Assembly: GCA_003249645.1 (NCBI GenBank)
Contig: QKIH01000035.1
Span: forward strand, 6,495 to 70,494
Length of the DNA stretch: 64,000 bases
Source of the DNA: Desulfobulbaceae bacterium
GTDB taxonomy: Bacteria > Desulfobacterota > Desulfobulbia > Desulfobulbales > Desulfocapsaceae
Reading direction: 5' to 3'
Made by a program: the position numbers and the translations under genes. Positions 4,492 through 56,663 of the stretch are shown piece by piece. The first letter of the stretch is position 1. Each line of letters opens with the position of its first letter. The notes beneath the pieces were generated by a model. It was given only the letters and a program-made list of their open reading frames with translations, did not search any database and was not told the DNA's origin.

Positions 4492-4528
4492 ATAACACCT
4501 CTATAATAACAGGATAGCAAAGAGAGCC

Positions 4529-5056: not shown

Positions 5057-5059
5057 GAC

Positions 5060-6547: not shown

Positions 6548-6609
6548 ACTTATTTTAAATAACGGTTAGCTATACAGAACCAATTCTTTTGCCTCAAGAG
6601 GTTAAATAC

Positions 6610-31048: not shown

Positions 31049-31428
31049 GAAAAAGCATCCTGAATCTGCATGCGATTAGACTGCTTTTCCGAAGCGGCAG
31101 CCAGAAGGGACAATCGACCGTCGAATACGTGGTCGTCGTCAGCCTGCTGCTGGCAACCTTCCTTGGAAGCAGCTGCATCGACGATCTTGTTGATGCATTT
31201 CACAAAAAGTACAAAAGTTATGCCTTCGGCGTCTCCATCTCCGACCCTCCAAGCTCTTCCTTTGACAAGGAAGTAAATGACGGAGCCCAGAAGATCGCTG
31301 ACATAATGAAGATAATAGATGATCTTCTGCAATTTGTCGAAGGTGCAGATCCTGATGCAGGTGGGGCCGGAGACAACCCTGCCACTGAAGAGCTTGACGA
31401 ATTTGAACGCATAATCAAGAACCTTTAA
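31045..31428 (+). CDS. second Flp-like pilin with extended acidic C-terminal domain
   Basis: 127 aa. Leader ...SGSQKGQSTVEYVVVVSLLLATFLG has the same G-Q-x-x-V-E-Y signature as flp. The C-terminal ~70 aa are helical and acidic. Confidence 0.55.
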   Translation: MRKSILNLHAIRLLFRSGSQKGQSTVEYVVVVSLLLATFLGSSCIDDLVDAFHKKYKSYAFGVSISDPPSSSFDKEVNDGAQKIADIMKIIDDLLQFVEGADPDAGGAGDNPATEELDEFERIIKNL

Positions 31429-31448
31429 CCATACAACAGCAGGGATTT

Positions 31449-33617: not shown

Positions 33618-33620
33618 GAT

Positions 33621-35129: not shown

Positions 35130-35141
35130 AGGGTATGCATT

Positions 35142-36875
35142 ATGTTTGAAATCCTGCTGAAAGACAACAAAGGCAAGCTGCTCGAAACAAGCACCTGTGA
35201 AACCGGATCGTGCACGGTCGGCCGTTCGGGGCGTAATCTTATTAACCTGAAGGGTTGGCGTATTGCGGCCATTCATGCTGAATTTTCTCTTCAGTCAAAA
35301 GGTCTGTACGTCTTCGATCGATCTGGTGGTATCGGCATACTGGTTAATGGCACACCCGTTCCCTCATTCGGACCGCTTCATGCCAGTGATGAGATTCAGA
35401 TAGGGTCCTACCGCCTCACAGCCCATTATGACGAGCCAGTCCTTTCCTATTCTGAAACTGCTGTGAGCAGCCCCAAAGCGCCTGAACAGCCTGAAAAGGA
35501 CATCCCGGAAGAACACATCGAGCATTTTACTGCAAAACAGACCGGCAGAAATATCGGTGTACAGCATCTTGAACATGATGAACAGCACAGTCACCAGCAC
35601 AGCAGCAAACGCTTTCTGTGGCATAACCGTATTCACCAGAAACTCATGCTGGCCATGGATCTTCGCCGCACAGACGTTGAATCCATGGACGATAACAAGC
35701 TCAAGGAAACAGTCGAATCACTGATCAAGGAAATCATCGAATCGGTAAAAAATGATCTGCCTTCTGATGTGGACTGTGAACGGCTGGCCAAAGAGGTGTT
35801 GAACGAGGCAATCGGGCTCGGCCCACTTGAAGATCTGCTGGCAGACGGCAGCATCACTGAAATAATGGTCAACCGCTTCGATGATGTCTACATTGAAAGA
35901 CGTGGGAAACTGCAGAAAAGTGAAGTGACCTTCTCAAGCGACGATGCCGTACGTTCAGTTATTGAGAGAATCGTTTCCCCGCTTGGCCGCAGAATTGACG
36001 AAAGCTCTCCCATGGTCGATGGACGCCTGAAAGACGGCTCCAGGGTCAACGCCATCATTCCTCCTCTGGCAATAAAGGGCCCGACCCTTACTATCCGAAA
36101 ATTCTCCAAACAGAAACTGCAGATGCAGGATCTGATCGATTTCGGTGCAATTTCCGCTGCCATGGCCTCTTTTCTCGAAACAGCCGTCACCAATAGAAAA
36201 AATATCGTCATCTCCGGCGGTACAGGCAGCGGCAAGACAACCTTTCTCAACGTGCTGAGTAATTACATTCCTCACACCGAACGCATTATCACGGTTGAAG
36301 ACTCAGCAGAACTGAGACTCGGTCAGCCCCATGTTGTCTCCCTTGAAGCACGGCCTGCCAACATGGAAGGAGTAGGAGGCATAACCATTCGTGATCTTGT
36401 TAAAAACTGTCTGCGCATGCGGCCGGATCGGATCGTGGTCGGCGAGTGCCGAGGCGGAGAGGCCCTTGATATGTTGCAGGCAATGAATACCGGGCATGAC
36501 GGATCCCTTACCACCGTTCATGCCAACACCCCCCGTGATCTTATATCCCGTCTTGAGGTCATGGTTATGATGGCAGGAATGGACCTGCCGGATCGCGCAA
36601 TCCGCGAGCAGGTAACCTCTGCAGTACACCTTGTCGTTCAGCAGGCCCGATTTGCCGACGGTACCAGAAAAATCACCCATATTACCGAGATTACCGGTAT
36701 GGAAAGCGGCATGGTGCAGATGCAGGATATTTTTATCTATAAGCAGCGCGGGTTTGACAGTGAAGGAAGGGTGCTCGGCGACTTTAAGGCAACCGGCCGG
36801 GTTCCCGAGTTTTATGAAAACCTGCAGGAAAGAGGAATTCCTGCGGACATGTCTTTATTTGCGGTGAACGAATGA
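35142..36875 (+). CDS. cpaF: FHA-domain-fused Tad secretion ATPase CpaF/TadA
   Basis: 577 aa. N-terminal FHA pattern (CTVGRSGRNLINL...IHAEF...LYVFDRSGGIGILVNGTPV...IQIGSYRL). C-terminal T2SSE ATPase with Walker A GGTGSGKTT, Asp box and His box. Confidence 0.92.
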   Translation: MFEILLKDNKGKLLETSTCETGSCTVGRSGRNLINLKGWRIAAIHAEFSLQSKGLYVFDRSGGIGILVNGTPVPSFGPLHASDEIQIGSYRLTAHYDEPVLSYSETAVSSPKAPEQPEKDIPEEHIEHFTAKQTGRNIGVQHLEHDEQHSHQHSSKRFLWHNRIHQKLMLAMDLRRTDVESMDDNKLKETVESLIKEIIESVKNDLPSDVDCERLAKEVLNEAIGLGPLEDLLADGSITEIMVNRFDDVYIERRGKLQKSEVTFSSDDAVRSVIERIVSPLGRRIDESSPMVDGRLKDGSRVNAIIPPLAIKGPTLTIRKFSKQKLQMQDLIDFGAISAAMASFLETAVTNRKNIVISGGTGSGKTTFLNVLSNYIPHTERIITVEDSAELRLGQPHVVSLEARPANMEGVGGITIRDLVKNCLRMRPDRIVVGECRGGEALDMLQAMNTGHDGSLTTVHANTPRDLISRLEVMVMMAGMDLPDRAIREQVTSAVHLVVQQARFADGTRKITHITEITGMESGMVQMQDIFIYKQRGFDSEGRVLGDFKATGRVPEFYENLQERGIPADMSLFAVNE

Positions 36876-37723
36876 TACTAACCCTGTTCGTGACAGTATG
36901 CGCATCGATTGCAACCGGCGTTTTTGCCTGGCTTTTCTTCGAGCATTTCTCGCACAGGATTCTAGAAGCGAAAGACTCCATCTCTTCCACCACCGCACTG
37001 AAGTTTTCCGAGATGTTTCTCTTTGTCGACGTCACCCGCTACTTCAGGATTTATATAGCCCTCATTATCGGCCTGCCTGTTCTTGTCACCCTGCTCTCAG
37101 AAGATTTCCTGCTTGGCATCATCACTCTTCTGGCGCTCTTTGCAGTACCGCCGATGATGATCAACTCGATGACGAAGCGCCGCCTGAAAAAAATCGAGCA
37201 GCAGCTCCCCGATGCCCTGATGATGATATCAGGTTCACTGAAAGCCGGGGCAAGTCTTTCAAGCGCTATCGACAACCTGATACGGGAGAGCCCGGCACCG
37301 ATCAGTCAGGAGTTCGGTCTCATGCTGCGTGAGAGAAAGCTTGGCGTCGATCTCGACACCGCTCTTTCTCATCTTGAGCAGCGAATCCCGCTTGAAGATT
37401 TTTCACTGAGCATCTCCGCCATCAGAATCTCGCGGGAAGTAGGTGGAAACCTTGCAGAAACATTGGAATCTCTTGCGGAAACAATACGCAAAAAACTGAC
37501 GATGGAAGGAAAAATAGAGAGCCTCACCGCCCAAGGAAAATTACAGGGGATCGTCATGAGTTCGCTGCCTGTTCTGCTCGTAGGTGTTCTGATGAAGGTT
37601 GAACCTGCTGCCATGGGTATGCTGTTTACGACCAAACTCGGCTGGGCCGTACTACTGCTGATCATTGCCATGCAGCTTCTCGGCTTCCTGGCAATTAGAA
37701 AAATCACCACCATAGACGTCTGA
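36872..37723 (+). CDS. tadB: Tad inner-membrane platform protein TadB
   Basis: 283 aa with a T2SSF-like domain (LPDALMMISGSLKAGASLSSAI...). Overlaps cpaF by 4 nt. Confidence 0.85.
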   Translation: MILTLFVTVCASIATGVFAWLFFEHFSHRILEAKDSISSTTALKFSEMFLFVDVTRYFRIYIALIIGLPVLVTLLSEDFLLGIITLLALFAVPPMMINSMTKRRLKKIEQQLPDALMMISGSLKAGASLSSAIDNLIRESPAPISQEFGLMLRERKLGVDLDTALSHLEQRIPLEDFSLSISAIRISREVGGNLAETLESLAETIRKKLTMEGKIESLTAQGKLQGIVMSSLPVLLVGVLMKVEPAAMGMLFTTKLGWAVLLLIIAMQLLGFLAIRKITTIDV

Positions 37724-37726
37724 AAT

Positions 37727-38611
37727 ATGGATACAAGCTATCAGCTCATACTTGCATCGTTCTCAATCATATCAGCGCTTGCCCTGTTCTACTGTCTGGC
37801 ATCGCTTTATGACGATGTGCCGGAAGATGACAGAGAGTTCATGGATCCGCTGCCCAAAGTGCTGAAACTCGTCTGGCCGCTGGTCCGGTTGATAGCCTAC
37901 CACCTGGTCAGCCCCATCGCTCCATACGACTACGTCAAACACGTGGAGGAAAGACTTCAGAAAACCGGTGTCAGCTATCTGATGATGGCAGAGGAGTTTA
38001 TCGCCCTTCGTATCTTTACTGCTCTCTTCACTCTCCTTTTCGGCTCGCTGATACTCATTACTTTCAACGAATGGAATAATCTTCTGATTCTTATCCTGCC
38101 GGTGATCGGTTATCTCTATCCGCATATATGGGTCAGGGATATCCGCAAGAGACTTGAAGACGGCATATTGAGAACGCTGCCCGCTTATCTCGATTTCATT
38201 TCCATGGCAGTGGAAGCGGGCCTCAACTTCTCAGGAGCCATCGAACAGGCAAGACGCAAGGGCCCTAAAGGACCGCTTGTCAATGAATTCGGCATAGTTC
38301 TGCGTGATCTGCGGTCCGGTATAAACCGCGAAAATGCGCTGAAGCGTATGGCGGAACGCCTGGATATCCATGAACTGACAAGCTTTGTCAATGCCGTGGT
38401 CCAGGCAGAAAAAATGGGATCCGGCCTGGGCACCATTTTAAAGATACAGGCGGAACAGAGAAGAAACGAACGGTTTCAACGAGCTGAAAAAAAGGCCATG
38501 GAGGCACCTGTAAAACTGGTTGGCCCGCTTATCCTGTTTATTTTCCCGACCACTTTTATCGTGCTGGCCTTTCCGATTGTGATGAAATTTCTCCATGGTG
38601 GTCTTTTTTGA
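37727..38611 (+). CDS. tadC: Tad inner-membrane platform protein TadC
   Basis: 294 aa with a T2SSF-like domain (LPAYLDFISMAVEAGLNFSGAIEQ...). Confidence 0.85.
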   Translation: MDTSYQLILASFSIISALALFYCLASLYDDVPEDDREFMDPLPKVLKLVWPLVRLIAYHLVSPIAPYDYVKHVEERLQKTGVSYLMMAEEFIALRIFTALFTLLFGSLILITFNEWNNLLILILPVIGYLYPHIWVRDIRKRLEDGILRTLPAYLDFISMAVEAGLNFSGAIEQARRKGPKGPLVNEFGIVLRDLRSGINRENALKRMAERLDIHELTSFVNAVVQAEKMGSGLGTILKIQAEQRRNERFQRAEKKAMEAPVKLVGPLILFIFPTTFIVLAFPIVMKFLHGGLF

Positions 38612-38964
38612 GATACGGTACTCTTTGCAACGATACAGACAGGAAGGTCATCATACCGAAGGTGTCGATTACTGAAAACTGGATTGAACGGGCAAGAGGG
38701 CTGCTCGGTCGTGCTCAGCTGGAAGAGGGAGAAGCAATGCTGATATCTCCCTGCAATTCAATTCACACGTTTTTTATGCCTTACGCTATCGATGTGGTAT
38801 ATCTTGATAAAAAGATGCATATTCTCAAGATCTGCTCCGACCTTTCACCATGGAGCCTCAGCGGCTGCCGCACTGCCTTCATGGTGCTTGAGCTGCCTGC
38901 ACGGGCAGCATCAAAAAATAATCTTCAAACAGGAATGCGTTTATCATGGCAGGAAGATATATAA
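38608..38964 (+). CDS. DUF192-family protein
   Basis: 118 aa. RARGLLGR...MLISPCNSIHTFFMPYAIDVVYLDK is the DUF192 (COG1430) pattern. Confidence 0.75.
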   Translation: MRYGTLCNDTDRKVIIPKVSITENWIERARGLLGRAQLEEGEAMLISPCNSIHTFFMPYAIDVVYLDKKMHILKICSDLSPWSLSGCRTAFMVLELPARAASKNNLQTGMRLSWQEDI

Positions 38965-39428
38965 TCCGGGCTCTATTACTGCTCTTTCTTGCAGTTGTTT
39001 CATTGTCAGGCTGCGCCGCAACAAAGCCCGGCAAAACGGTCTTTGACTACGAGCAGGAAGCCAGCGAGGCCTATGCTGGCGGCAGGTATGATGTGGCTGT
39101 TAACCGTTATGAATACCTTGTTGAGCAGGTACCGAAAGACCCGAATTTCTGGTTCAGGCTGGCAAACTCCTATGCCAAAAACGGTGAACCGGAAAAAGCC
39201 GTTGTGGCCTATCAGAATACCCTGCTCCGCGACAGCACCTATGAAAAAGCATGGTATAATCTCGGTATCATCCAAATGCAGCAGGCACTGAAGACGTTTA
39301 TCGACATGCAGAAAGCCATGCCGCCGAACAGCCCAGTCCATTCGCTTGCTGAAGAGAAAATGAACGGTCTTTTTCTCCTGCTCGGCCAGAATCCAGATGA
39401 AGAACATCCTGCAGCCGACACCAAATAG
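38946..39428 (+). CDS. TPR-repeat lipoprotein (TadD-like)
   Basis: 160 aa. Lipobox LSGCAA and TPR repeats (FWFRLANSYAKNGEPEKAVVAYQNTLLRDSTYEKAWYNLG). Confidence 0.6.
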   Translation: MAGRYIIRALLLLFLAVVSLSGCAATKPGKTVFDYEQEASEAYAGGRYDVAVNRYEYLVEQVPKDPNFWFRLANSYAKNGEPEKAVVAYQNTLLRDSTYEKAWYNLGIIQMQQALKTFIDMQKAMPPNSPVHSLAEEKMNGLFLLLGQNPDEEHPAADTK

Positions 39429-40089
39429 ATTCCATCAGCTTTTCCAGGCATCCGGCCAGAGCATGGTCGAACTGCTGGCTATTTTAAGCGCAATGCTGCT
39501 GCTTATTTTCGGCACCATCCAGTTTGCTCTGATCTGGCATGCTAAGATCACCCTGAACTACGCCGTCTTTGAAGCCGTAAGAGCAGGAACCCTGAACAAT
39601 GCAACCTATGATGCTGTCAAGGAAGGCTTTGCGAGAGGACTCGCCCCGTTATACAGCTTTGACGAAAACGATGAAGATCAGGTAGGCGCCTTTCAGGTGG
39701 CTCGTTCAAAGATTTTGGAAGAGTTCGATTCAAGCGAACAGTTGATTCGTATTGAACGGTTGAACCCGACCGAGAACAGTTTTGCGGATTTTGCAGACGG
39801 GGCCGGCTATATCCCCAATGATAATCTCCGTTTTCGCTCATCAACCATCAGCCATCGATCCGGCAGCTCAATCCAGGATGCCAACCTGCTGCACCTCAGA
39901 GTCACGTACTGGTATCCGCTCTATGTTCCTCTGGTCAATAAGTTCATGTTCAACACGGTAATCTGTAGCGGAAAATGGAAAAAGGACAAGGTGTGCAGTC
40001 AGGATATTCCGCGCATTCCGCTGACATCGACAACTGTTTTACGCATGCAGACACCCGCTCTCAACACTCAGGGATTTTACCAACCGTAA
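39397..40089 (+). CDS. TadE-like pseudopilin
   Basis: 230 aa. ASGQSMVELLAILSAMLLLIFGTIQFALIWHAKITLNYAVFEAVRAG is a TadE N-terminal domain. Confidence 0.7.
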   Translation: MKNILQPTPNRFHQLFQASGQSMVELLAILSAMLLLIFGTIQFALIWHAKITLNYAVFEAVRAGTLNNATYDAVKEGFARGLAPLYSFDENDEDQVGAFQVARSKILEEFDSSEQLIRIERLNPTENSFADFADGAGYIPNDNLRFRSSTISHRSGSSIQDANLLHLRVTYWYPLYVPLVNKFMFNTVICSGKWKKDKVCSQDIPRIPLTSTTVLRMQTPALNTQGFYQP

Positions 40090-41054: not shown

Positions 41055-43313
41055 ATGGTAGGGCAAGCTACTTTATGCTATAAAGGGAAATGGAATTGTA
41101 ATACAGAGCAGTACACAGAAACGAATATCAAGCCCGGCGTTCACATCATGACCAAAGCAACCGATACGACCACGGAGCATTCAATCTCTGATAGCTCCTT
41201 GCAACCAAATCCTGCCACCCTAAAAAGTTCTTCGCAGCCATTTCCCCAGCAGAACATACTTAACAGGGAAATAGAAGAACGAAAACGGGCAGAACAGATC
41301 ACCCAGACTCTGTTTAAGATTTCCAGTGCAGTCAGCTCCAGCAAAAATCTGCAGGAGCTGTATCGTTCTATTCACCTTATTCTTGGTGATATCATAGACC
41401 TCACCAACTTTTACATTGCTCTCTATTCGAAAGAAACAGGACGGGTATGCTTTCCCTATTTCGTTGATCAATATGACAGCGGTCAAGTTTATTCAGATCA
41501 GATCAACCGGGAAAACTCCTTAACCGGCAGTGTTATCAAAAAAGCCGCCCCTGTATTTTTTGATGAGCAGGAACTGCGCCAAAGGACTGAAAAAAATCTC
41601 ATTGTCGGAACCACTCCGCTTGTGTGGATCGGCATCCCTTTGAAAAGGGGAGATGAAGTTATCGGAATAATCGCAACCCAGAGCTACGACAACCCGAACC
41701 TTTTTGACCAGATGGATCTTGACACTCTGGTTTCCGTCTCGGATCAGATTGCTCTGGCAATTGAGCGAAAACACTATGAACAGGCATTAATTTCCAGCGA
41801 GAAAAAATACCGCAATATTCTCGAAAGCATTGATGACGGTTATTTCGAAATAGATACTGATCTTTGTTTCTCCCTGGTTAACAGGGCGATATGTGAGATA
41901 CTTGGCGAAAAGGCAGAGAACCTGCTTGGCACACCCTGCTCAAAATTCATCTCTCCATATATCTACAGCAAAATAGAGCAGATGGTAAAAGACCTTGTCC
42001 AGAACGGTGAATCCGGCAAGATTATTGAAATTGAGTTCACTCCTAAAAAAGGGGAAAAACGCTTCCTCGAGGCAGCCTTTTCTCTCAGGCATAATGAATC
42101 TAATCAAGTCATAGGAATACGTGGCATCGGCAGGGATATAACGCAGAAAAAGCAGGCCGAAAAGAACAGAAAATTGCTTGAGGATCAACTTCAACAGGCC
42201 CAGAGACTCGAATCACTTGGCACTCTTGCCGGAGGAATAGCTCATGATTTCAACAATCTGCTCATGGGAATCCAGGGAAGAATTGACCTGATGCGAAATG
42301 ATCTGGCCAAGGACCATCCGCACAGCAAGCAATTAGAAAACATAGAAAACTGTGTTGAGCGGGCAGCCAATCTCACTTCCCGGCTTCTCGGCTTTGCCCG
42401 GGGCGGAAAATATGAACTGCAGCCGACCGATGTCAACAGACTCATAGAAGAGAGCATCACTATTTTCGGTCGAGCGAAAAAAGAGATTACCATCACAACC
42501 CACTTCGATCAAAAAGGCTGCATCATAGATGCTGCATCCAATCAGATTGAGCAGGTCTTTCTCAACCTTCTGGTCAATTCATCCCAGGCAATGTCTGGAA
42601 ACGGCACTATTTCGATCAACACATGCCGTATCATCATCAACGAACAGCAAGCTGAATTTCACACAATTGTTCCCGGCAGCTACATCCGGATAACATTGAC
42701 CGATAACGGTAAAGGCATTGCTAAAGAACACCTGCCAAAAATATTTGACCCGTTTTTCACAACTAAATCCCTTGGCGGCGGAACCGGGCTCGGACTTTCG
42801 ATGGTTTACGGTATAATCAAGAATCATCTGGGAGCAATTACGGTAGAAAGCCAAGTCAATCAAGGGACATGTTTTACTATATATCTGCCTGAATCCTCAC
42901 ATGAACTTCCCCAGGAAGTCAAAATTATTAAAAAAACCGAAAAAGGCAGCGAGCTCATTCTTCTTGTTGACGACGAAGAAATGATCACCGCGGTCGGCAA
43001 GGAAATGCTTGTTGTACTGGGCTACAAGGTAATAACAGCTTCATCCGGATACGATGCTGTTGAAATAGTAAAAAATCATCAGGACGAGATTGATCTGGTG
43101 ATCATTGACATGATTATGCCGAAAATGAGTGGCGGAGAACTGTTTGATCAGCTGATGCAGATTAATCCCGAACTCAAAACAGTCTTGTCAAGCGGCTACA
43201 GTGTTGAAGGAGATGCCCAGAAGATTCTCGACCGGGGCTGTTGCGGATTTATCCAAAAACCATTCAATCTCTCAAAACTCTCAGAAAAAATACGCGAAAT
43301 ACTGCAGGAATAG
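41055..43313 (+). CDS. hybrid sensor histidine kinase (GAF-PAS-HisKA-HATPase-REC)
   Basis: 752 aa. GAF-like and PAS-like regions, H-box GGIAHDFNNLL, G-boxes DNGKGI and GGGTGLGLSMV, and a C-terminal receiver (LLVDDEE...IIDMIMPKMSG). The start may be ATG 41148. Confidence 0.9.
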   Translation: MVGQATLCYKGKWNCNTEQYTETNIKPGVHIMTKATDTTTEHSISDSSLQPNPATLKSSSQPFPQQNILNREIEERKRAEQITQTLFKISSAVSSSKNLQELYRSIHLILGDIIDLTNFYIALYSKETGRVCFPYFVDQYDSGQVYSDQINRENSLTGSVIKKAAPVFFDEQELRQRTEKNLIVGTTPLVWIGIPLKRGDEVIGIIATQSYDNPNLFDQMDLDTLVSVSDQIALAIERKHYEQALISSEKKYRNILESIDDGYFEIDTDLCFSLVNRAICEILGEKAENLLGTPCSKFISPYIYSKIEQMVKDLVQNGESGKIIEIEFTPKKGEKRFLEAAFSLRHNESNQVIGIRGIGRDITQKKQAEKNRKLLEDQLQQAQRLESLGTLAGGIAHDFNNLLMGIQGRIDLMRNDLAKDHPHSKQLENIENCVERAANLTSRLLGFARGGKYELQPTDVNRLIEESITIFGRAKKEITITTHFDQKGCIIDAASNQIEQVFLNLLVNSSQAMSGNGTISINTCRIIINEQQAEFHTIVPGSYIRITLTDNGKGIAKEHLPKIFDPFFTTKSLGGGTGLGLSMVYGIIKNHLGAITVESQVNQGTCFTIYLPESSHELPQEVKIIKKTEKGSELILLVDDEEMITAVGKEMLVVLGYKVITASSGYDAVEIVKNHQDEIDLVIIDMIMPKMSGGELFDQLMQINPELKTVLSSGYSVEGDAQKILDRGCCGFIQKPFNLSKLSEKIREILQE

Positions 43314-43393: not shown

Positions 43394-44284
43394 CTATTTC
43401 GCAGTGACAATCTCAACCATTGTCTCGTAGATACTCATCGGAGTCGTTCCGTGTGCTTCGGCAATTTCTTTAAGCTTCTGGGAGGGTTCCGCATTTATTC
43501 CTTTGGCAGCCAGCCCCTGCATAATCATCTCAAGTGATAAGCCATAATCATTACAGATTGATTCAATGCTCATTTTACCAAGACCGGATTTCGGGCCGTT
43601 CACGAACTCTTCAATATTTGCGCTGACTGATTGAGCACCTGCCTTCTCCTTGGCAACATCATCTCGGATAGTTGTTGCACCCTTTTCCTGTGATGGTTTA
43701 ATGATATCATATATTCTTTGCGGCGGGACCCCTGCGCGGGCAGCAATAACCTTCAGAGTCTCATTTTCACTCTTTACTTCAATTCCCGCTGCTTTCAGGA
43801 GTTCCATACATTTCGCAAGATCAAGACTGTCTCTCTTGGCGAACATTTTTAGCGAAGACAATTCAGCATGTCCATACGGAGGCTCACCGTATTTTTCACC
43901 TGCTGCTTCTTTAAAATGCTCTGAAAGGCTCATGATCTGTGCCATAGGTGGAACGTTGAAATAGGTTCCGACTGTCACGGCAAGGGTTATAACTAGAGCC
44001 ACAATATTGGTACCGGAAAAAAATCTGAACTCTTTAGCCTTGTTTTTCATATAGTTTATAATCGGCGTCCAGTTATAAAAGATATGCACCAGACCGGCCA
44101 GCAGGAAGAGAAACCCGACAGTGATATGCTGAGCACCCCAGTCAGTTTTCGACAGACCGAGAAAACTCCAGTCAGCCCAGTAAGCCACCCTTCCTTCCGG
44201 GACAACATAGAGAACAACGGAGTTCACTGTTAGAATAATGATACTCCAGACCAGAGTCATTGATGTAATTTTTCTCAAATTCAT
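43394..44284 (-). CDS. DUF4405-like membrane protein with soluble C-terminal repeat domain
   Basis: 296 aa. N-terminal ~125 aa has 3-4 TM helices with conserved His (HITVGFLFLLAGLVHIFYNW). The C-terminal part holds two similar helical modules. Confidence 0.55.
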   Translation of the reverse strand: MNLRKITSMTLVWSIIILTVNSVVLYVVPEGRVAYWADWSFLGLSKTDWGAQHITVGFLFLLAGLVHIFYNWTPIINYMKNKAKEFRFFSGTNIVALVITLAVTVGTYFNVPPMAQIMSLSEHFKEAAGEKYGEPPYGHAELSSLKMFAKRDSLDLAKCMELLKAAGIEVKSENETLKVIAARAGVPPQRIYDIIKPSQEKGATTIRDDVAKEKAGAQSVSANIEEFVNGPKSGLGKMSIESICNDYGLSLEMIMQGLAAKGINAEPSQKLKEIAEAHGTTPMSIYETMVEIVTAK

Positions 44285-44451: not shown

Positions 44452-44501
44452 GAAATAAAAAAGAGCCCTGCAGTATTCGTTTTCGAAAAATACAGGGCTC
44501 T
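44452..44501 (-). terminator. rho-independent terminator of the hydrogenase-MCP unit
   Basis: On the minus strand, AGAGCCCTG...CAGGGCTCT forms a long hairpin followed by TTTTTTATTTCC, 34 nt after the MCP stop. Confidence 0.7.
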
Positions 44502-44534
44502 ATCTTCCACCTGCCATAAAGCAGGATTCAAATG

Positions 44535-46223
44535 CTATTTGAGCTTGAACTGCGCAATTAAATGCTTCAGCTGCTCAGAAAGTTCAGCCAGTTCGGCAGC
44601 ACTCCTGTCGACCTGGTAACTGGAGTTTTTGATGCTCTCAGAGGCAGAATCAACTTCAACAATATCCTTGCTGATACCATGACTGACTTCGGAGCTTGCC
44701 TGAACATTATCGGCAACCCTGTCAATACCGTTGGAAGCCATACTGATATTGCCGGCAATTTCTCTGGTTGCCACAGACTGCTCTTCTACCGCAGCAGCAA
44801 TAGTTGTGACTATTGCATTAATATCATTAATAATTTCACTTATCGAAGCAATCTCTGCAATAGCACCTGAGGTATCGGTCTGAATTTCGGAAATCCGTTG
44901 ACTGATTTCCCCGGTTGCTGCTGCGGTCTGTTTAGCCAGTTCTTTGATCTCATTGGCAACAACAGCAAACCCCTTACCTGCCTCCCCTGCTCTTGCCGCC
45001 TCGATGGTGGCATTCAATGCAAGCAGGTTGGTCTGATCAGAGATCTCATTAATGGTCTCGGTAACCTTGCCGATATTCTGCGCCGATACGCCGAGATTCT
45101 TCATCTTCTGTGATGCATTCAGGGCATCATCAACAGCTTTCTCAGAAATCTTACGGGCATTTTCAGTATTATTTGCAATCTCATCAATTGTTGACGTCAT
45201 CTCTTCCGTCGCTGCGGCAACCATATTGATATTGCTGTTGGCCTCCGCCATTGATTCCGATACCGAGGCCATATTGGAACTCATTTCATGGGCCAGGGAT
45301 GCAACCTCAGTGGACTTCTTCGACATATCCTCCGAATCGTTCAACATACCCACGGAAAGACCGTTGAGTTTTTCCGAAGAAGATTTCAGACTGTCTACCT
45401 GTTTGGAAATCGTGAACATCATTTCATGCAGGGTGGCGATAAAGCCGTTGAAATTGCCAGACAGCAAGCCGATTTCATCTTTTGACCGCACTTCCATCTC
45501 CGTGGTCAGATCTCCGGATGCAACCTGATCAAAGCCTTTGCTTATTCGCCAAATCGGCACCGCAATAATCTGTCTTGATAGAAAGAAAATTGCCAAAGTG
45601 AGTACAACAAGAACGGCAACAACGGCTATTGCCGCGTCAGTAAGGTAGGTAATATTGAGATTATGCATCGACTCTGTTGTTTGTTTCTTCGCCTTAAGAA
45701 AGCTATCGATGGAAAACTTGAAATACATCACACCGCCATGGGGCTCACCCAGTTTCCAGTCAAGATGACAACGGAGACAATCGGCAACTATTTTCTGCGG
45801 ATGATATATCTGGATGGCCTGGTCATCCATCTGAAAAATAAGCTCTTCTCCCTTGTTGATTCGGTCATTGATATCAGCAGGAAGAGTCTTGTTGAGAAAT
45901 GCTTTATCGGATGCATAATCAACCTTACCGTTTTTAGAAAACAGAGAGAATTCAAGCAGTCCTTCAACATTATTTGTGTCTTTAAGCAAATTGCCAAATT
46001 TCTCCATTTCTCCCCGGGTCAGTGAATCGGCAACTGAACTTGCAATCGAGTGATAGAGGTTTCTGGCAAATGTTTCTTCCCGGGCCTGCAGCCGACCAAG
46101 ATTGTCCTTTGTCAGCTTGCCTATTTCCCGGTTCACCTGCACATATTGAAAAAGTTGTGACAGAATAATTACAACACTCAGGCAGACAATAAGTGTGAGA
46201 ATCAGTTTTGTATGCAGTTTCAT
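44535..46223 (-). CDS. methyl-accepting chemotaxis protein with periplasmic CxxCH (heme c) sensor domain
   Basis: 562 aa. TM1 (residues 5-25), a ~175-aa periplasmic domain containing C149-LR-C152-H153, TM2 (~195-216), a HAMP domain and an MCP signalling domain ([31 protein letters not shown]). Confidence 0.92.
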
Positions 46224-46244
46224 GATATCGCTCCCTTATCTCCC

Positions 46245-47156
46245 CTATGCTTTTTTCTCGCCCTTGCGATAAAACGGAAGAGCTGGATCTTTTGCAAAAA
46301 ATTCCGATGAACAGCCGATACACGGCCCACCCGACTTAATACAGTTGTTTATGCCGCCATTACGATAACGGGTTGTACAATCCGAATAAGTTACAACGCC
46401 AAGGCAGCCCAATTCGAAGAGACAACCGGGATCACCAAATTTTTTCGCAAAAGTGGAGCGTTCATAATCATAAAAACGGGGACAATTATGATGTATTGTT
46501 TTACCGAAGAACATCAGAGGCCGATCGCGGTCATCAAGCGGTGGTAAACCGTATTTAACAAGATGGACGAGTGTACCGACAAACCAGTCCGGGTGAGGAG
46601 GACAGCCTGGAATCACAATTGATGGAGTGTTGACCCCTTTATTCTTGAGATATCGCGGCGAACTGACTGCACCTGTAGGGTTGTTGTCGGAACCGGGAAT
46701 GCCGCCAAATGCCGCACAGGCACCAAGATGAATAACATGTGTAGCGGACTGCGCAGCCTTGACCACCAGATCTCCTACCGGCTCATGACCAATTACACAG
46801 GCCTCAGGCATTCCTTCAGGGATGCTGCCTTCCACCACAAGTATATGCCCGCCCTCTTCAGAGGTCTTATGGATGATTTCCATACAGCCCTCACCTTGCG
46901 TAGTTGAAAGGGTATGGTGGAAAAGCAGAGAAATATACCGGGTAAACAGTTCCCCGGCACCCGGTGCTTCCGAATCAATAAATGATATTGTACACCCTGA
47001 ACATGACTGCGCCTGCAGCCAGAGGACTTTTACCTGCCCTGTCGCCAATGATTCCATTGCATCCGCAATATCAGGAATTGCACTGCTGGCAAGCCCCATT
47101 GCAACTGCCATTTTCGACCCAAGTTCAAGAAATTCACGACGTGTAAACTTTGTCAT
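46245..47156 (-). CDS. [NiFe] hydrogenase small subunit, Tat-signal-bearing
   Basis: 303 aa. Twin-arginine leader MTKFTRREFLELGSKMAVAMGLASSA. Proximal-cluster motifs SCSGC, GACAAFGG and GCPPHP. Distal/medial motifs HHNC...GC...GC and C-x11-C-x6-C-x2-C. Confidence 0.93.
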   Translation of the reverse strand: MTKFTRREFLELGSKMAVAMGLASSAIPDIADAMESLATGQVKVLWLQAQSCSGCTISFIDSEAPGAGELFTRYISLLFHHTLSTTQGEGCMEIIHKTSEEGGHILVVEGSIPEGMPEACVIGHEPVGDLVVKAAQSATHVIHLGACAAFGGIPGSDNNPTGAVSSPRYLKNKGVNTPSIVIPGCPPHPDWFVGTLVHLVKYGLPPLDDRDRPLMFFGKTIHHNCPRFYDYERSTFAKKFGDPGCLFELGCLGVVTYSDCTTRYRNGGINNCIKSGGPCIGCSSEFFAKDPALPFYRKGEKKA

Positions 47157-47168
47157 AACACTACCTCC

Positions 47169-48671
47169 TTAATGAACCGCACAAGCTAAACATGGGTCAA
47201 ACGCACGTACAATACGAGCCGCCTCTATCGGATTATCCTTATCCTGAACATAGGTTCCAATAAGAGCCTGCTCCACCGGTCCTGAGACCTCCTTGTCATC
47301 TTTGGGTGAACAGTTCCAAGTTGTCGGAACGATACAGTCGTAATTACTGACCTTCGAGTTTTCGATGCTGATCCAGTGTCCAAGCGCCCCTCTCGGTGCC
47401 TCTGTCAGCCCGGCCCCTTTTCCTGAGGCAGGAATTGTAAAATCGGCACAGGCAGGCTGCCCCGGCTCTAGTTTTTCAATCCATTCCTCCATTCTGTCGA
47501 GCAGAAGCTGCAGTTCGATAATTCTGATAGCATGGCGGCCAAGACATGAATCAAGCTCCTCAACAGTGCGCCCGATCTGGCGCAGGAACTGATCTGTATA
47601 CTGCTTGAGCAAAGAGTCCCCTGGCCTTGCATAAGCGACCATCACCCTGGACAAAGGACCGACTTCCATAGGCTCACCGTTGTATCTCGGGGCCTTAATC
47701 CAGGAATATGCCCCAGATTTATTCGGTTCAGGATTGGTTTTTCCTCTGCCGGAATCGCTTGAATATTTCGAATATTTCACCTGTTCGGTGATACTGGCGG
47801 TGTCTACCTCGGAGAATGTGCCGTTGATCAACACTCCCGGTTCAAACACCTTGTTCGTATTACCTTTTGCTTGAGCAAATGAACCGTAGCTGAGATAATT
47901 GCCGCAGCTCTTCCCGAGTTGCCAATACTCAGGAAATTCGTTTGCCACCGCAAGGACATCATGTATGTATTCCGTCTCAAGAAACTCGCGAAGCTGCCTC
48001 GTCTTAGTCCTGCAAAGAGCGATTTTCTTTGTTGTCACCTGCTCAGTTACACCACCGGGGACATTTGAGGCCATATGGGGCATCTTGCCTGAGAAAATTG
48101 CAACAAGCTGGTGTGCCAGCGCACGTATATCCATTGCAACAAAATAGTTTTTCAACGCTGAGATATTTACCTCAGCGTTCTGAATATATCGCGTTTCATA
48201 ACGCGGCAGAAAAGGTGCCGCAGGGAATAATTTTTTAGAACGCATTTCCTGCTGAACCCACGACTTGATGTCAAGCAGCATTCTGTCTTTGCCCTGATAT
48301 GCCAGGATACCCTTAACATCGATAAAATCCATGGCAGACAGATGATAGAAATGTGTCACGTTATTGTGAAAATAATTGGCTCCCAGCATGATGTTTCTGA
48401 TCAGGCGTCCATTGTCGGGAATTTCAAGACCGTATGCATCCTCCTGCGCCAAAGATGACGCCTGCCCCTGGGAAACCGGACAGACACCGCAGATGCGCTG
48501 CATTATCTGCTGAGCATCCAAGGGAGAACGTCCTCTCATTATTTGTTCAAAACCCCTGAACATTTCACCGACACATTTCGCATCGCTGATGTAATTGCCT
48601 TCAACTTCAAGATTTATGGCCAGATGCCCTTCAATCCGCGTAAAGGGATCAATACTCACTTTTTGCGCCAT
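47169..48671 (-). CDS. [NiFe] hydrogenase large subunit (short form, no C-terminal extension)
   Basis: 500 aa. Has RIEGH and RICGVCPVSQ near the N-terminus. The C-terminus is DPCLACAVH followed directly by the stop. Both Cys are TGT codons. Confidence 0.95.
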   Translation of the reverse strand: MAQKVSIDPFTRIEGHLAINLEVEGNYISDAKCVGEMFRGFEQIMRGRSPLDAQQIMQRICGVCPVSQGQASSLAQEDAYGLEIPDNGRLIRNIMLGANYFHNNVTHFYHLSAMDFIDVKGILAYQGKDRMLLDIKSWVQQEMRSKKLFPAAPFLPRYETRYIQNAEVNISALKNYFVAMDIRALAHQLVAIFSGKMPHMASNVPGGVTEQVTTKKIALCRTKTRQLREFLETEYIHDVLAVANEFPEYWQLGKSCGNYLSYGSFAQAKGNTNKVFEPGVLINGTFSEVDTASITEQVKYSKYSSDSGRGKTNPEPNKSGAYSWIKAPRYNGEPMEVGPLSRVMVAYARPGDSLLKQYTDQFLRQIGRTVEELDSCLGRHAIRIIELQLLLDRMEEWIEKLEPGQPACADFTIPASGKGAGLTEAPRGALGHWISIENSKVSNYDCIVPTTWNCSPKDDKEVSGPVEQALIGTYVQDKDNPIEAARIVRAFDPCLACAVH

Positions 48672-49111
48672 TCCTGCTACTCCTTCTACTCAAATCAACT
48701 AGTTACATAAAACACTACCTTTCAAGGTAACTCCCCGATGCAGCGTACATTCCTGATGGAATACTAATGAAAAACTAGTTGTATGTTAATAATTCTCAAA
48801 AGTCAACTCGGGCCAGAAAAATATTTCTCAGTTTTTTTGATAAAAATATTTTTTAATTTCACCGTGTTATCGTTAACACATTAGTTGTTTCAAGATGTTA
48901 AAAACGGTAAGATATGAGCTGTCTGCAACCTGCTGACTTGTATTTACAGAATTATATTTTGTACACTGGTAGTGATACTTACTCAGGAGAAGGCCCTCTT
49001 GACTTCTCATCAAGGACTTCGGCCAATTTCAGTTTACAGAGATCAGGCATCAGTGCTATATACCCTGGCAAAGTGAGCTGTTTCAGATACACCAAGAGAG
49101 AAAAACGCATT

Positions 49112-55689: not shown

Positions 55690-56663
55690 ATATTCCCTCC
55701 TAACTCCCCCTTGTTGAGATGCGGCTTATTTTTACTGAAAAAGCCAAGCGCCAGAAACAGCAGCAAACCCGGAAGTCTAACAATAAGCAAACAGAAACGG
55801 ATTATAAACATCAACTCAGCACCACGGACATATCCGCTTTTTGCAAAGCTTAACATTGATATTGATTCACCAAGTCCAAGACCGCCCGGAGTCACAGGCA
55901 TTCCATTGGCAATCATTACAAAGGGAATGTTAACGGCTGAAGTGGAAAAAGACAATGGCGTATCGAGCATTTGACCGCTGATCTGAAACCCGATCGCCAT
56001 GCTGATTGCAGCCGTGAAGGAAAATAAGGAAGCAATTCCAACCCACAAAAGCAATCGTCCCCACGTTGACGATTGACCGTTTTCGCCTGCTCTTCGTTTT
56101 TCCTTTATCCCCATCCAAACAATGGTTGCCACTGTAACAAGCAGAGTCGCAACACATGATCCTGACAGAAAAAGAATATAGCTCGGCTCGGAAAACGACG
56201 GTCTAACCCAGAGCAGAACTATCAGCGCCAATGCAAAAAAAGCTGCCAGACCAAGCAATCGATCAAGAAAGACTGAATTAATCGTCTTGGTCTTAGCATT
56301 GGAGACGATACGTGTAATATAATAAAATCGGCTTACTTCAGCTCCAAGCGTCCCCGGAGTAACCATTTGAAAAAACTGGCCAATCCAGGAATACACCAGC
56401 ACCTTTCTCAAAGGCAGGTTGATCCTGTTAAGACGGAGCAGACACCACCACCTGATACTTTGAAAGGCGAGGGAAAAAAGAAGAACTAAAAGTAAGGGAA
56501 GAATCCACCAGGATGAAACGATGGACAGTAAGGTTTCGGTGGAAAGCTTATTTTGAGAAATAAGCCAGCCAAGAGCGGCTATTGCAATGCCGCTCTTAAC
56601 AATGGTGAGCCCTGTTTTTGAAAGAGAAATAAGTCCGATAAAATTTCTAATTCTTGCGAACAC
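55686..56663 (-). CDS. flippase-like membrane protein (LPG-synthase-TM / UPF0104 family)
   Basis: 325 aa with ~8 TM helices. Has the GxxGAEVSRFYY-type motif region (TPGTLGAEVSRFYYI). Confidence 0.6.
   Translation of the reverse strand: MFARIRNFIGLISLSKTGLTIVKSGIAIAALGWLISQNKLSTETLLSIVSSWWILPLLLVLLFSLAFQSIRWWCLLRLNRINLPLRKVLVYSWIGQFFQMVTPGTLGAEVSRFYYITRIVSNAKTKTINSVFLDRLLGLAAFFALALIVLLWVRPSFSEPSYILFLSGSCVATLLVTVATIVWMGIKEKRRAGENGQSSTWGRLLLWVGIASLFSFTAAISMAIGFQISGQMLDTPLSFSTSAVNIPFVMIANGMPVTPGGLGLGESISMLSFAKSGYVRGAELMFIIRFCLLIVRLPGLLLFLALGFFSKNKPHLNKGELGGNI

Follow-up and report, generated by a model that had tools for sequence, protein, structure and literature searches.

A conserved hydrogenase-chemoreceptor gene unit in a Desulfobulbaceae bacterium: a candidate periplasmic H2-sensing input to chemotaxis

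Gene arrangement at the locus

The window, a 64,000-nucleotide stretch of contig QKIH01000035.1 from a Desulfobulbaceae bacterium, contains three minus-strand genes in the order large hydrogenase subunit, small subunit with a Tat signal, and methyl-accepting chemotaxis protein (MCP). The spacers between them are 12 and 21 nt long.

48672 to 48913, minus strand: AT-rich intergenic region of 242 nt upstream of the large-subunit gene, bounded on its other side by a divergent MFS transporter gene
47169 to 48671, minus strand: [NiFe] hydrogenase large subunit, 500 aa (PF00374, E 3e-147)
46245 to 47156, minus strand: [NiFe] hydrogenase small subunit, 303 aa (PF01058 and PF14720)
44535 to 46223, minus strand: MCP, 562 aa (Pfam HAMP and MCPsignal)
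44452 to 44501, minus strand: terminator-like hairpin and T-run closing the three-gene unit

The original prediction had placed the three reading frames exactly here (large 48671 to 47169, small 47156 to 46245, MCP 46223 to 44535), and the sequence confirms both gaps as well as the ribosome-binding site at the large-subunit stop. The first spacer reads TAA-GGAGGTAGTGTT-ATG, with AAGGAGG overlapping the stop codon. The unit has ribosome-binding sites, and a strong terminator is found solely after the MCP gene. The hairpin claimed for this position folds strongly (−37.3 kcal/mol over 101 nt; z = −5.39; none of 200 shuffled sequences equally stable) and is followed by UUUUUUAUUU. Owing to its large inner loop, the hairpin escaped a simple scan for terminators. 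We infer that the three genes are co-transcribed as one unit.

The upstream region, previously given as 240 nt, measures 242 nt and is presumed to be the promoter region. Its sole sigma-70-like match (TTAACA-17-TAGTAT, 48789 to 48761; promoter scan score 9/12) scores no better than shuffled sequence and is therefore a weak lead only.

That no hyp gene, endopeptidase or cytochrome partner adjoins the unit had been noted before, and it extends to the whole window, where we found no hyp, endopeptidase, cytochrome c3 or che genes, nor any flagellar or ccm genes. The one qualification is the next gene downstream, beyond the terminator (44284 to 43394), which encodes a DUF4405 domain. We take b3892 to be fdoI, the cytochrome b556 subunit of formate dehydrogenase. 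A published table of gene neighbourhoods (PMC12727194) lists DUF4405 together with the cluster for which b3892 is the example. The downstream gene is absent from all 160 other loci and is thus not part of the unit. The window also contains type IV and Tad pilus clusters.

The hydrogenase

48468 to 48497, minus strand: L1 motif RICGVCPVSQ (aa 59–68) of the large subunit, with Gln68 replacing the usual His
47172 to 47198, minus strand: L2 motif DPCLACAVH (aa 492–500), followed directly by the stop codon, with no C-terminal extension
47127 to 47144, minus strand: twin-arginine signal TRREFL of the small subunit (N-terminus MTKFTRREFLE; predicted cleavage after ADA, at about aa 33)

The large subunit matches NCBIfam NF033181 (628 bits, cut-off 600), and the solved structures nearest to it are [NiFeSe] hydrogenases (399 bits). 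Two of its features recall sensory enzymes. A Gln in place of His in L1 is a mark of H2-sensing regulatory hydrogenases (PMC5665086); among the 119 other closest homologues listed, 7 share it, which makes 8 of 120 with the window's own protein. The C-terminal extension is missing in all of the best 120 homologues listed; according to a review, large subunits without it belong to the sensory groups 2b and 2d and to groups 4c, 4e and 4g, not to group 1 (PMC7294309). The gas-channel residues, judged by structure alignment and invariant columns, are Val63 and Leu111, the wide type of ordinary uptake enzymes, and the Ile/Phe pair of regulatory hydrogenases was not found in the alignment. As far as the sequence goes, there is no sign that the enzyme is a low-turnover sensor.

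The small subunit carries ligands for three FeS clusters: proximal (C52/C55/C147/C185), distal (H222/C225/C245/C251) and medial (C260/C272/C279/C282). Given its four Cys, the medial cluster is predicted to be [4Fe-4S]. There is no C-terminal membrane anchor. Across 45 MCP-linked small subunits all 12 ligands are invariant, including the distal His222, and nearly all of these proteins have an RRxFL-type motif. The Tat motifs and the intact FeS relay suggest that enzyme and sensor domain share one compartment.

In our phylogeny the MCP-linked large subunits form a separate clade (bootstrap 98/100; 99/100 with D. vulgaris HysA placed outside), which leaves out all enzymes with the conventional small-large order and a C-terminal extension. 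The extension is missing in every member of the clade. Membership in a respiratory clade, which would have spoken against the original prediction, is ruled out by this topology. The characterised enzymes closest to the window's hydrogenase are respiratory ones of the [NiFeSe] and [NiFe] types, which feed soluble cytochromes encoded elsewhere, and a cytochrome partner of this hydrogenase may likewise be encoded at a distance.

It could be argued, then, that the locus pairs an ordinary respiratory hydrogenase with an energy-taxis receptor. A soluble periplasmic uptake hydrogenase, like HysAB and HynAB of Desulfovibrio, would feed the cytochrome c pool. The haem-MCP would read that pool or general periplasmic redox, as DcrA and GSU0582/GSU0935 are thought to do, and co-transcription would serve only shared expression conditions, with H2 sensed indirectly, if at all. 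The respiratory nature of the closest solved relatives, the NF033181 match, the standard gas-channel residues and the complete FeS relay all fit this account. In Desulfovibrio, too, the genes of soluble hydrogenases have no cytochrome gene beside them. We nevertheless regard the account as unlikely: the enzymes group in a clade of their own, apart from HysA, and have uniformly lost the C-terminal extension, and co-regulation leaves the conserved linkage described below unexplained.

The receptor and its haem domain

aa 7–29 and aa 196–218 (both approximate), minus strand: hydrophobic transmembrane helices TM1 and TM2 of the MCP
45639 to 46136, minus strand: periplasmic sensor domain (aa 30–195)
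46005 to 46007, minus strand: Met73, candidate distal axial haem ligand, in the conserved motif SL(E/T)RGEM-KF, where a short helix begins
45765 to 45779, minus strand: CLRCH, c-type haem attachment motif (aa 149–153; Cys149, Cys152, His153)
45423 to 45569, minus strand: HAMP domain (aa 219–267; Pfam)
44685 to 45152, minus strand: signalling domain MCPsignal (aa 358–513; 111.7 bits, cut-off 34.6)

The CxxCH site proposed for the periplasmic part of the MCP is present as CLRCH. It lies between two hydrophobic helices and hence in the periplasmic loop. At the other loci, 29 of the 42 partner MCPs keep the form C[ILV]RCH, as do 141 of 144 representatives of the sensor-domain family; Arg151 is invariant even in haem-less variants. 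In a 37-sequence alignment, all CxxCH-containing partners have Met at position 73, whereas all partners lacking CxxCH have T, F, A, Y, S or E there.

The domain matched no Pfam family, DUF3365 included. An AlphaFold model of aa 1–220 (mean pLDDT 81) was matched by Foldseek to sCache/PAS sensors, among them the Geobacter haem-c redox sensors GSU0935 (E 6e-5) and GSU0582 (E 9e-4). Most full-length family members are MCPs (105 of 112). Related sensor domains are also fused to histidine kinases and, adjoining a small-subunit gene, to a SiaA-like PP2C phosphatase.

A subgroup of 11 Planctomycetota loci has D[ML]xR[LM]xP instead of DCxRCH and has lost the Met as well. Triad, Tat signal and the full set of FeS ligands are nevertheless kept in these loci, and their receptors retain the domain's fold signature along with Gly71 and Arg151, both invariant. 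Coupling, then, cannot rest on haem reduction alone. Judged from these sequences, covalent haem is not needed for the hydrogenase-MCP partnership everywhere.

This subgroup fits a rival account, in which H2 is sensed through direct contact between the proteins and not through reduction of a haem. The hydrogenase would dock on the periplasmic domain and relay a redox or conformational change mechanically, as proposed for the cytoplasmic HoxBC-HoxJ, and the haem, where present, would gate the signal as an additional input for O2, NO, CO or redox potential. Regulatory hydrogenases indeed signal in complex with their kinase (PMC6978683, PMC5665086), and the haem sensors of Geobacter bind CO and NO (PMC8396549). 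Like regulatory hydrogenases, the clade lacks the C-terminal extension, and the window's enzyme also has their Gln. Against contact alone stand the near-universal CxxCH and its covariation with Met, which argue that the haem is central where it is present, and the invariant His ligand of the distal cluster, which serves intermolecular electron transfer. We think signalling by contact quite improbable.

Conservation across genomes

Whether MCP and hydrogenase stay linked elsewhere was a point on which the original prediction could have failed, and the linkage proved to be conserved across phyla in both directions. An MCP with the same sensor domain lies directly downstream in 42 of 45 other loci with the large-small order. 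Two of the three exceptions carry no information, one being interrupted by an assembly gap and the other frameshifted at the end of its contig; in the third, L004, the hydrogenase has no MCP. Conversely, hydrogenase genes adjoin the sensor-domain gene in 74 of 80 metagenome loci retrieved by the sensor domain alone. Some metagenome loci have the rearranged orders small-MCP-large or MCP-large-small, with the three genes still together. Linked loci occur in Desulfobacterota, Verrucomicrobiota, Planctomycetota, Riflebacteria, Spirochaetia and Chloroflexota. Being conserved in dozens of unrelated genomes, the triad is more than a chance arrangement.

If the genes merely shared expression conditions with a respiratory enzyme, such adjacency over six phyla, maintained even where the order is shuffled, would be hard to understand. 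This sensor-domain family is, moreover, the only partner seen in the sampled loci. Within 6 kb of the linked loci, 44 of 45 have no multihaem cytochrome reading frame. Cytochrome c3 pools are not a known feature of Verrucomicrobiota or Planctomycetota. What does suit the respiratory account is that the sensor domain at times occurs with no hydrogenase nearby, in hybrid histidine kinases (L083/L084, L157) and in MCPs (L104, L154); the domain can thus work, or be encoded, apart from the enzyme.

The receptor's main role could also be to tether the hydrogenase to the membrane or to serve it as an electron outlet; alternatively, its pathway may not control swimming, the Che-like output acting instead on gene expression, pili or the formation of biofilms. 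In favour of this, the hydrogenase itself possesses neither membrane anchor nor cytochrome b, the kinases and the phosphatase mentioned above contain related sensor domains, and the window combines pilus clusters with a lack of flagellar and che genes. Yet the receptor has a single haem with no obvious onward acceptor, which would make it a poor respiratory outlet, and the family consists mostly of MCPs. Furthermore, cheA directly follows the MCP gene in five loci (L029, L031, L032, L038, L039) and is nearby in L030 and L036. We consider a tether or a non-swimming pathway very improbable.

A possible mechanism

With moderate confidence, we propose that the three genes encode a periplasmic H2-sensing input to chemotaxis, in which H2 oxidation reduces the haem of the receptor and thereby drives signalling. 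The conserved linkage and the separate clade support this hypothesis, which the original prediction had put forward; the missing extension, Gln68, the adjacency of cheA and the Geobacter-like sensor model support it beyond what was then known.

Under our proposal, the two hydrogenase subunits would assemble in the cytoplasm. Since the large subunit has no C-terminal extension, an endopeptidase step would not be needed. The heterodimer would be exported via the Tat signal of the small subunit and remain soluble in the periplasm. There it would oxidise H2, and the electrons would run along the three FeS clusters to the surface-exposed, His-ligated distal cluster and on to a c-type haem attached at Cys149/Cys152/His153 of the PAS/Cache-like domain. 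Reduction may alter the axial ligation or spin state of the haem, with Met73 binding as Met60 does in Geobacter GSU0935. The change in ligation would shift the N-terminal helices that continue into TM1 and TM2, and the signal would pass through HAMP and the MCP signalling domain to CheA/CheY. Swimming would then depend on how much H2 is available in relation to the oxidants present in the periplasm, which re-oxidise the haem. Recurring as it does in six or more bacterial phyla, the pairing probably represents a hitherto undescribed device by which anaerobes swim in response to hydrogen gas.

Relation to known systems

Like the window's unit, the group 2b hydrogenases HoxBC-HoxJ of Ralstonia eutropha and HupUV-HupT couple a [NiFe] heterodimer genetically to a signal transducer. 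Both kinds of enzyme have a large subunit without C-terminal extension (PMC7294309), the Gln-for-His exchange in L1 (PMC5665086) and three predicted [4Fe-4S] clusters. Group 2b enzymes, however, are cytoplasmic, have no Tat signal, follow the small-large order, have a gas channel narrowed by Ile/Phe and pass their signal to a transcription-controlling histidine kinase. The window's enzyme is predicted to be Tat-exported, follows the large-small order, has Val/Leu channel residues, clusters nearest to group-1a-like periplasmic enzymes and is paired with a chemoreceptor through a periplasmic haem domain.

The [FeFe] hydrogenases of group C2 are cytoplasmic. Listed as "chemotactic (putative)" in HydDB, they embody the same idea, predicted H2 sensing via MCPs (PMC5037454, PMC9431212), but belong to an unrelated hydrogenase superfamily, have no haem-c relay and are uncharacterised. 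That no hydrogenase-chemoreceptor pair has been characterised, as originally stated, agrees with the literature we searched, in which this putative class is the nearest concept (PMC5037454) and a single table row, left without comment in a 2025 paper, is our only trace of such a unit.

The best structural and sequence matches are HysAB and HynAB of sulfate reducers (group 1a/1b; about 43–48% identity to HysA). They are likewise soluble, Tat-exported heterodimers, and the four-Cys medial cluster is common to the window's enzyme and the [NiFeSe] enzymes. In contrast, they follow the small-large order, pass electrons to soluble cytochrome c3 for respiration and fall outside the MCP-linked clade (bootstrap 99/100).

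For the sensor domain, the closest parallels are Geobacter sulfurreducens GSU0582 and GSU0935 (PDB 3B47, 3B42) and Desulfovibrio DcrA, whose sensor domains also lie between two MCP transmembrane helices. The Geobacter sensors resemble the window's MCP in having a single CxxCH towards the C-terminus of a PAS/Cache-like fold and a Met among its N-terminal helices: Met60/His144 of GSU0935 parallels Met73/His153, and axial binding of Met60 switches with redox state (PMC8396549). Between the Geobacter domains and ours there is no detectable sequence similarity. What the Geobacter and DcrA receptors are believed to sense is ambient redox potential or O2 rather than a dedicated enzyme's output, and they are not known to be encoded beside a hydrogenase.

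A further comparable system is sCache_heme (DUF3365/Tll0287), likewise an extracytoplasmic Cache-type sensor with covalent c-type haem and fused signalling modules (PMC12889525). These domains are proposed to sense NO. The window's MCP has no Pfam DUF3365 match, and the paper describing them does not mention hydrogenase (PMC12889525). Tll0287 (5b82) appears at rank 38 of the fold matches to our sensor-domain model.

The gene unit

The reading that our evidence supports best is that three adjacent genes encode a two-protein H2 receptor, in which a [NiFe] hydrogenase is paired with a haem-carrying methyl-accepting chemotaxis protein (MCP). The unit has the following parts, with protein families assigned by Pfam and NCBIfam:

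48671-47169, minus strand: [NiFe] hydrogenase large subunit, 500 aa (PF00374, E 3e-147)
47156-46245, minus strand: hydrogenase small subunit, 303 aa (PF01058 and PF14720)
46223-44535, minus strand: MCP, 562 aa (HAMP and MCPsignal domains)
44452-44501, minus strand: hairpin followed by a U-run (-37 kcal/mol, z = -5.4)

The original prediction of three packed genes on the minus strand is borne out by the positions and spacing of the open reading frames (ORFs) and by the family assignments. All three ORFs lie head to tail. Only 12 nt separate the large from the small subunit, with an AAGGAGG that overlaps the large-subunit stop codon, and 21 nt separate the small subunit from the MCP. A sequence scan between the genes found no terminator-like and no convincing promoter-like site, and the predicted hairpin and T-run does close the unit. 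The three genes are probably co-transcribed. The claim that no cytochrome c3, endopeptidase or hyp gene adjoins them holds across the whole 64-kb window, in which ccm and che genes are absent as well.

Just past the terminator (43394-44284, minus strand) lies the gene of a 296-aa protein whose N-terminal part is a DUF4405 membrane domain and whose C-terminal part has no family assignment. The gene b3892 is presumably fdoI, the cytochrome b556 subunit. A published neighbourhood table records DUF4405 together with the cluster that b3892 represents (PMC12727194). We reject the DUF4405 protein both as a fourth component of the unit and as its cytochrome b partner, since it is encoded beyond the terminator and none of the related loci examined has a homologue; it also has no NCBIfam match. 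Convergent with this gene is a GAF-PAS-HisKA-HATPase-REC hybrid histidine kinase (41055-43313, plus strand), which we likewise reject as a part of the system. Kinases near two related loci (L082 and L002) resemble it in generic domains only.

Conservation of the linkage

The order large subunit, small subunit, MCP was already seen in the first look-ups, at homologues of 61% and 57% identity. One of these loci belongs to Desulfotalea psychrophila LSv54, the other to a 1.1-Mb metagenomic contig with hypCFDE divergent upstream. In a forward test, a large-subunit alignment searched against one genome per species yielded 80 loci, which were sorted by script together with the two look-up loci. Besides the window, 45 loci show large>small. 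The original prediction had called this the reverse of the usual order; 37 loci in the same test are of the conventional small>large type. In all 45 large>small loci the histidine of CxxCxxH is the last residue of the large subunit, and an MCP gene lies directly 3' of the small subunit in 42 of them, a count that takes in one frameshift-split MCP and one locus with two MCPs, of which the second is the match. The three exceptions are an assembly gap, a contig end with a frameshifted small subunit, and one locus that is truly without an MCP (L004). An MCP with this sensor domain is absent from all 37 conventional loci, and in all but three of these (34/37) the large subunit bears a C-terminal extension of 14-18 aa.

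For the reverse test, metagenomes were scanned with the periplasmic domain of the MCP alone (alignment A4). Hydrogenase genes lie alongside the sensor domain in 74 of the 80 loci obtained. The original prediction had allowed that the MCP might not accompany this hydrogenase clade in other genomes; the linkage turns out to be conserved in both directions. The order changes to small>MCP>large at five loci (L118, L119, L133, L147 and L160) and to MCP>large>small at one (L148). Membership that is retained despite shuffled order is what one would expect of a functional module.

The module is widespread. Within the Desulfobacterota it is carried by Desulfobulbaceae, Desulfurivibrionaceae, Desulfobacter curvatus DSM 3379, Desulfotignum and Desulfarculus; other carriers belong to the Verrucomicrobiota, Planctomycetota, Riflebacteria, Spirochaetia and Chloroflexota. 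As minor observations, altered orders in which the three genes stay together, found at the six loci just named and at L149, include MCP>small>MCP>large. Duplicated arrangements occur at L012 (3068-5513 and 6001-11777), L017, L134, L144, L161 and L163, either as pairs of extension-less hydrogenases back to back or as two to three tandem sensor-domain MCPs after one hydrogenase.

The hydrogenase

The large subunit contains both nickel-binding motifs (RICGVC, aa 59-64, and DPCLACAVH, aa 492-500). The small subunit has all 12 ligands for the proximal, medial and distal FeS clusters, the distal-cluster His222 among them, and these are invariant in the 45 small subunits of the linked loci, that is, those with both hydrogenase and MCP. 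Four Cys hold the medial cluster, as in [NiFeSe] enzymes. At its N-terminus (MTKFTRREFLE) the small subunit bears a twin-arginine motif, TRREFL (aa 5-10), and nearly all clade members have a Tat motif of the RRxFL type. The hydrogenase shares its compartment, the periplasm, with the sensor domain of the MCP. The gas channel is of the standard wide type, with Val63 and Leu111, the latter invariant in our large-subunit alignment (A1); we take these positions to match Ile62 and Phe110 of HoxC. Judged from sequence, the standard gas channel, the invariant FeS ligands and the Tat motifs argue for an enzyme that is built to pass electrons to an external periplasmic acceptor.

Two features recall sensory hydrogenases. 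First, the large subunit ends at His500 without a C-terminal extension, as it does in the 120 closest homologues listed and in all 47 clade members. A review gives a missing extension as a feature of groups 2b and 2d, which sense H2, and of groups 4c, 4e and 4g, and does not list it for the periplasmic group 1 enzymes (PMC7294309). A regular-expression scan found an endopeptidase-like ORF in none of the 45 linked loci, but this crude scan detects the enzyme in only 3 of 37 conventional loci and is too insensitive to carry weight. Second, Gln68 (window nt 48468-48470) replaces the His of the L1 motif (RICGVCPVSQ), a replacement that is characteristic of regulatory hydrogenases (PMC5665086). Gln68 is not a clade trait: among the closest homologues listed, it is common to the window and 7 of the 119 others (8/120 including the window). 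The nearest relative of the window's enzyme (L003) also has Gln at this position, the rest of the clade has His, and Gln68 apparently arose independently in the window's sub-lineage.

The regulatory systems HoxBC-HoxJ and HupUV-HupT are like the window's system as we read it in that the hydrogenase is the sensor. Group 2b enzymes also share the absent extension and the L1 Gln with the window's enzyme, but they have a narrow Ile/Phe gas channel in place of Val/Leu and a different gene order. Furthermore, they are cytoplasmic and have a histidine kinase as partner, whereas the window's enzyme has a Tat signal and an MCP with a periplasmic sensor.

One could also argue that the hydrogenase is simply a respiratory enzyme, and the MCP a co-regulated energy-taxis receptor. 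The respiratory enzymes HysAB and HynAB are similar in sequence to the window's enzyme and likewise have a Tat signal on the small subunit, but they are set apart by their C-terminal extension, their gene order and their place in the tree. Neighbour joining of 85 large subunits gathers the extension-less MCP-linked proteins in a single clade (bootstrap 98/100). To this tree we added HysA of D. vulgaris, a respiratory [NiFeSe] enzyme and the sole characterised reference, with its sequence rebuilt from a printed alignment. HysA joins the small>large, extension-bearing enzymes, and its mean identity to members of the MCP-linked clade, which now receives 99/100, is 43%. A respiratory placement had been named as a possible outcome; the large subunit lies outside. 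No multihaem ORF is present within 6 kb in 44 of the 45 linked loci; the cytochromes that serve soluble Desulfovibrio hydrogenases are themselves encoded elsewhere. We consider a respiratory enzyme with an energy-taxis receptor rather unlikely.

A simple [NiFeSe] Hys-type identity (the enzyme passes NCBIfam NF033181) was rejected on tree position, gene order, the missing extension and Cys in the place of Sec. A scan of the small subunits returned only P117, A119, E157, F247 and an FPFYRK tail as clade-specific, and as a docking surface these residues were rejected because they are too confounded by phylogeny. Three loci from Dehalococcoidales/Chloroflexota MAGs (L052, L056 and L057) are small>large and have lost the extension independently. 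Their small subunits are without the RRxFL motif, as are many others in this region of the tree, and these hydrogenases may be cytoplasmic.

The receptor and its sensor domain

The MCP has two transmembrane (TM) helices followed by HAMP (PF00672, 46.2 bits, cut-off 25) and the signalling domain (PF00015, 111.7 bits, cut-off 34.6). Its periplasmic part was predicted to contain a CxxCH, and a single CLRCH does lie at aa 149-153, in the loop between the two hydrophobic helices. The receptor would be loaded with haem at this site. The sensor domain (aa 30-195) matches no Pfam family at E <= 0.01, including DUF3365, the family of the sCache_heme (Tll0287) domains, and its profile has no match at E <= 10 among PDB sequences, the Geobacter domains discussed below included.

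Word-indexed protein searches with the sensor domain returned only 8 and 3 proteins, as TM segments swamped the index. An exhaustive HMMER search, used in their place, returned 378 cluster representatives at 50% identity. The family that we examined consists of the best 150 of these 378 and eight fragments from the word-indexed search. Among its full-length proteins 105 of 112 have MCP architecture; the remaining architectures include three hybrid histidine kinases and one PAS and PP2C phosphatase. CxxCH is present in 141 of the 144 family representatives examined.

We modelled aa 1-220 of the MCP with AlphaFold on a 9-sequence alignment (mean pLDDT 81). Along the chain the model predicts a long N-terminal helix and then a short one with Met73 at its start, followed by a PAS/Cache-like sheet of five strands. 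The CxxCH sits on another short helix, after which a long C-terminal helix continues into TM2. The Foldseek matches of the model include sCache sensors, among them WalK (E 4e-5), and the haem-c PAS-like periplasmic sensors of two Geobacter sulfurreducens MCPs, GSU0935 (3b42) at E about 6e-5 (5.7e-5) and GSU0582 (3b47) at E 9e-4. According to the model, the window's domain would share with both a single periplasmic CxxCH, a PAS/Cache-like fold and a Met in the N-terminal helices; the likeness is structural and architectural only, with no sequence homology detected. In the Geobacter sensors, the haem is bound at Cys140, Cys143 and His144, and changes from high-spin to Met60-ligated low-spin on reduction, a ligand switch that is thought to be the signal (PMC8396549). 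Met73 and His153 would be the candidate equivalents of Met60 and His144.

In an alignment of the partner MCPs, this Met (in SLERGEM or RGQM) is present in every sequence with CxxCH and replaced by another residue in every sequence without. The co-variation of Met73 and CxxCH is suggestive rather than statistical, as there was essentially one loss event, in a Planctomycetota group. In these haem-less MCPs (third gene after the small subunit; L016, L019, L020, L022, L025-L028, L030, L036 and L043) D[ML]xR[LM]xP replaces DCxRCH, the Met of RGEM is lost, and Gly71 and Arg151 are invariant.

These variants bear on another explanation, namely that H2 is sensed by protein contact and that the haem is a second input. 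The Planctomycetota subgroup speaks for it, because it keeps the triad, the Tat motif and all FeS ligands without a haem site. The near-universal CxxCH of the sensor family is the pattern to set beside this subgroup, and we think that sensing by contact is quite improbable.

Chemotaxis context and other outputs

At five loci, from Desulfurivibrionaceae, Desulfobulbaceae and Desulfotignum MAGs, cheA lies directly 3' of the hydrogenase-linked MCP (L029:4343-7384, L031:8554-11724, L032:7489-10653, L038:11563-13506 and L039:10154-13327). With cheA immediately downstream, the triad opens a che operon in these MAGs. At two Pirellulales loci (L030 and L036) cheA is nearby.

The receptor could also be a mere tether, or have an output other than motility. 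A few relatives of the sensor domain have other outputs. Hybrid histidine kinases (HisKA-HATPase-REC-Hpt) with a CxxCH/RGEM sensor domain occur at L083/L084:6001-8766 and L157:4911-7811, with no hydrogenase gene within 5-6 kb, and so the sensor domain is not strictly tied to an adjacent hydrogenase. At L085:4991-9073 a haem sensor domain with two CxxCH is fused to a PAS domain and a SpoIIE/PP2C phosphatase. This gene lies directly 3' of a [NiFe] small-subunit gene (the 12-kb contig has no large-subunit gene). After it come genes for DUF6272 and SiaC, which complete a partner-switching set of the SiaABC type. The arrangement suggests that a hydrogenase-sensor pair can connect to biofilm or c-di-GMP-type outputs. 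For the MCP-linked module, where cheA follows the receptor in several genomes, we give a tether or a non-motility output hardly any credence.

Proposed mechanism and significance

Under the two-protein receptor reading, the exported periplasmic hydrogenase would oxidise H2, and its distal cluster would reduce the haem of the receptor. A switch of haem ligand would then act by way of TM2 and HAMP on the Che pathway and alter swimming behaviour. Whatever the coupling, we think it more likely than not that the module provides a chemosensory pathway with a dedicated H2 input. That enzyme-driven haem reduction is the working mode in this organism is a serious possibility, to which we give somewhat less than even chances. 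On balance we lean towards regarding the module as the first dedicated bacterial H2 chemoreceptor, in which a soluble periplasmic [NiFe] hydrogenase is the ligand-recognition half and, by reducing the haem of the MCP with which it is paired, signals the presence of H2. Sensory hydrogenases and haem-c chemoreceptors are both known kinds, and in this module the two meet in the periplasm.

Anaerobic communities have H2 as one of their central currencies. We know of no H2 chemoreceptor, and to our knowledge those H2 sensors that have been characterised reside in the cytoplasm and act on transcription. A methanogen has been shown to move towards H2 (PMC3817446), and a sulfate reducer is suspected of doing so (PMC12004927). 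The only precedent for the idea of an MCP-linked hydrogenase is the putative [FeFe] group C2, an uncharacterised class (PMC5037454) from an enzyme superfamily unrelated to the window's [NiFe] enzyme. A 2025 neighbourhood survey has 'MCPsignal' as cluster 29 near [NiFe] large subunits, without comment (PMC12727194). We found no description of a hydrogenase-MCP module in the full-text literature that is open without subscription, in agreement with the original view that no such pair has been characterised.

If our reading is correct, an enzyme would serve as the specificity element of a chemoreceptor, and the signal would consist of electrons, not of ligand binding. The extension-less, periplasmic large>small enzymes would form a new sensory [NiFe] subgroup in anaerobes of at least six phyla, with swappable output modules, mostly MCPs and occasionally a PP2C phosphatase. 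They would also add a hydrogenase class. Current schemes would score these genes as respiratory uptake enzymes, and metagenomic estimates of H2-oxidising capacity would need correcting. The Pfam-less sensor-domain family, with its 378 clusters, would gain a function. There may be a bearing on syntrophy, corrosion and underground hydrogen storage. Bacterial H2 taxis would become directly testable in cultured carriers, Desulfotalea psychrophila LSv54 and Desulfobacter curvatus DSM 3379.

Other features of the window

A type IV pilus cluster (pilMNOP-secretin) lies at 2137-8253 on the plus strand. On the same strand, a Tad/Flp cluster (27590-40089) encodes TadG-like, RcpC/CpaB, secretin and FHA-domain ATPase proteins, as well as two TadB/C-like proteins, a TPR protein and a TadE-like protein; its RcpC/CpaB has an odd FlgE/F/G D1-like stretch at aa 378-425. 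At 56647-57360 on the minus strand is a homologue of 4-HFC-P synthase (PF04476, E 1e-71), which we take to be the MfnB-type enzyme of methanofuran biosynthesis. It adjoins a lysyl-phosphatidylglycerol-synthase-like membrane protein and parts of a TRAP transporter, and is unusual in a Desulfobulbales-like bacterium.
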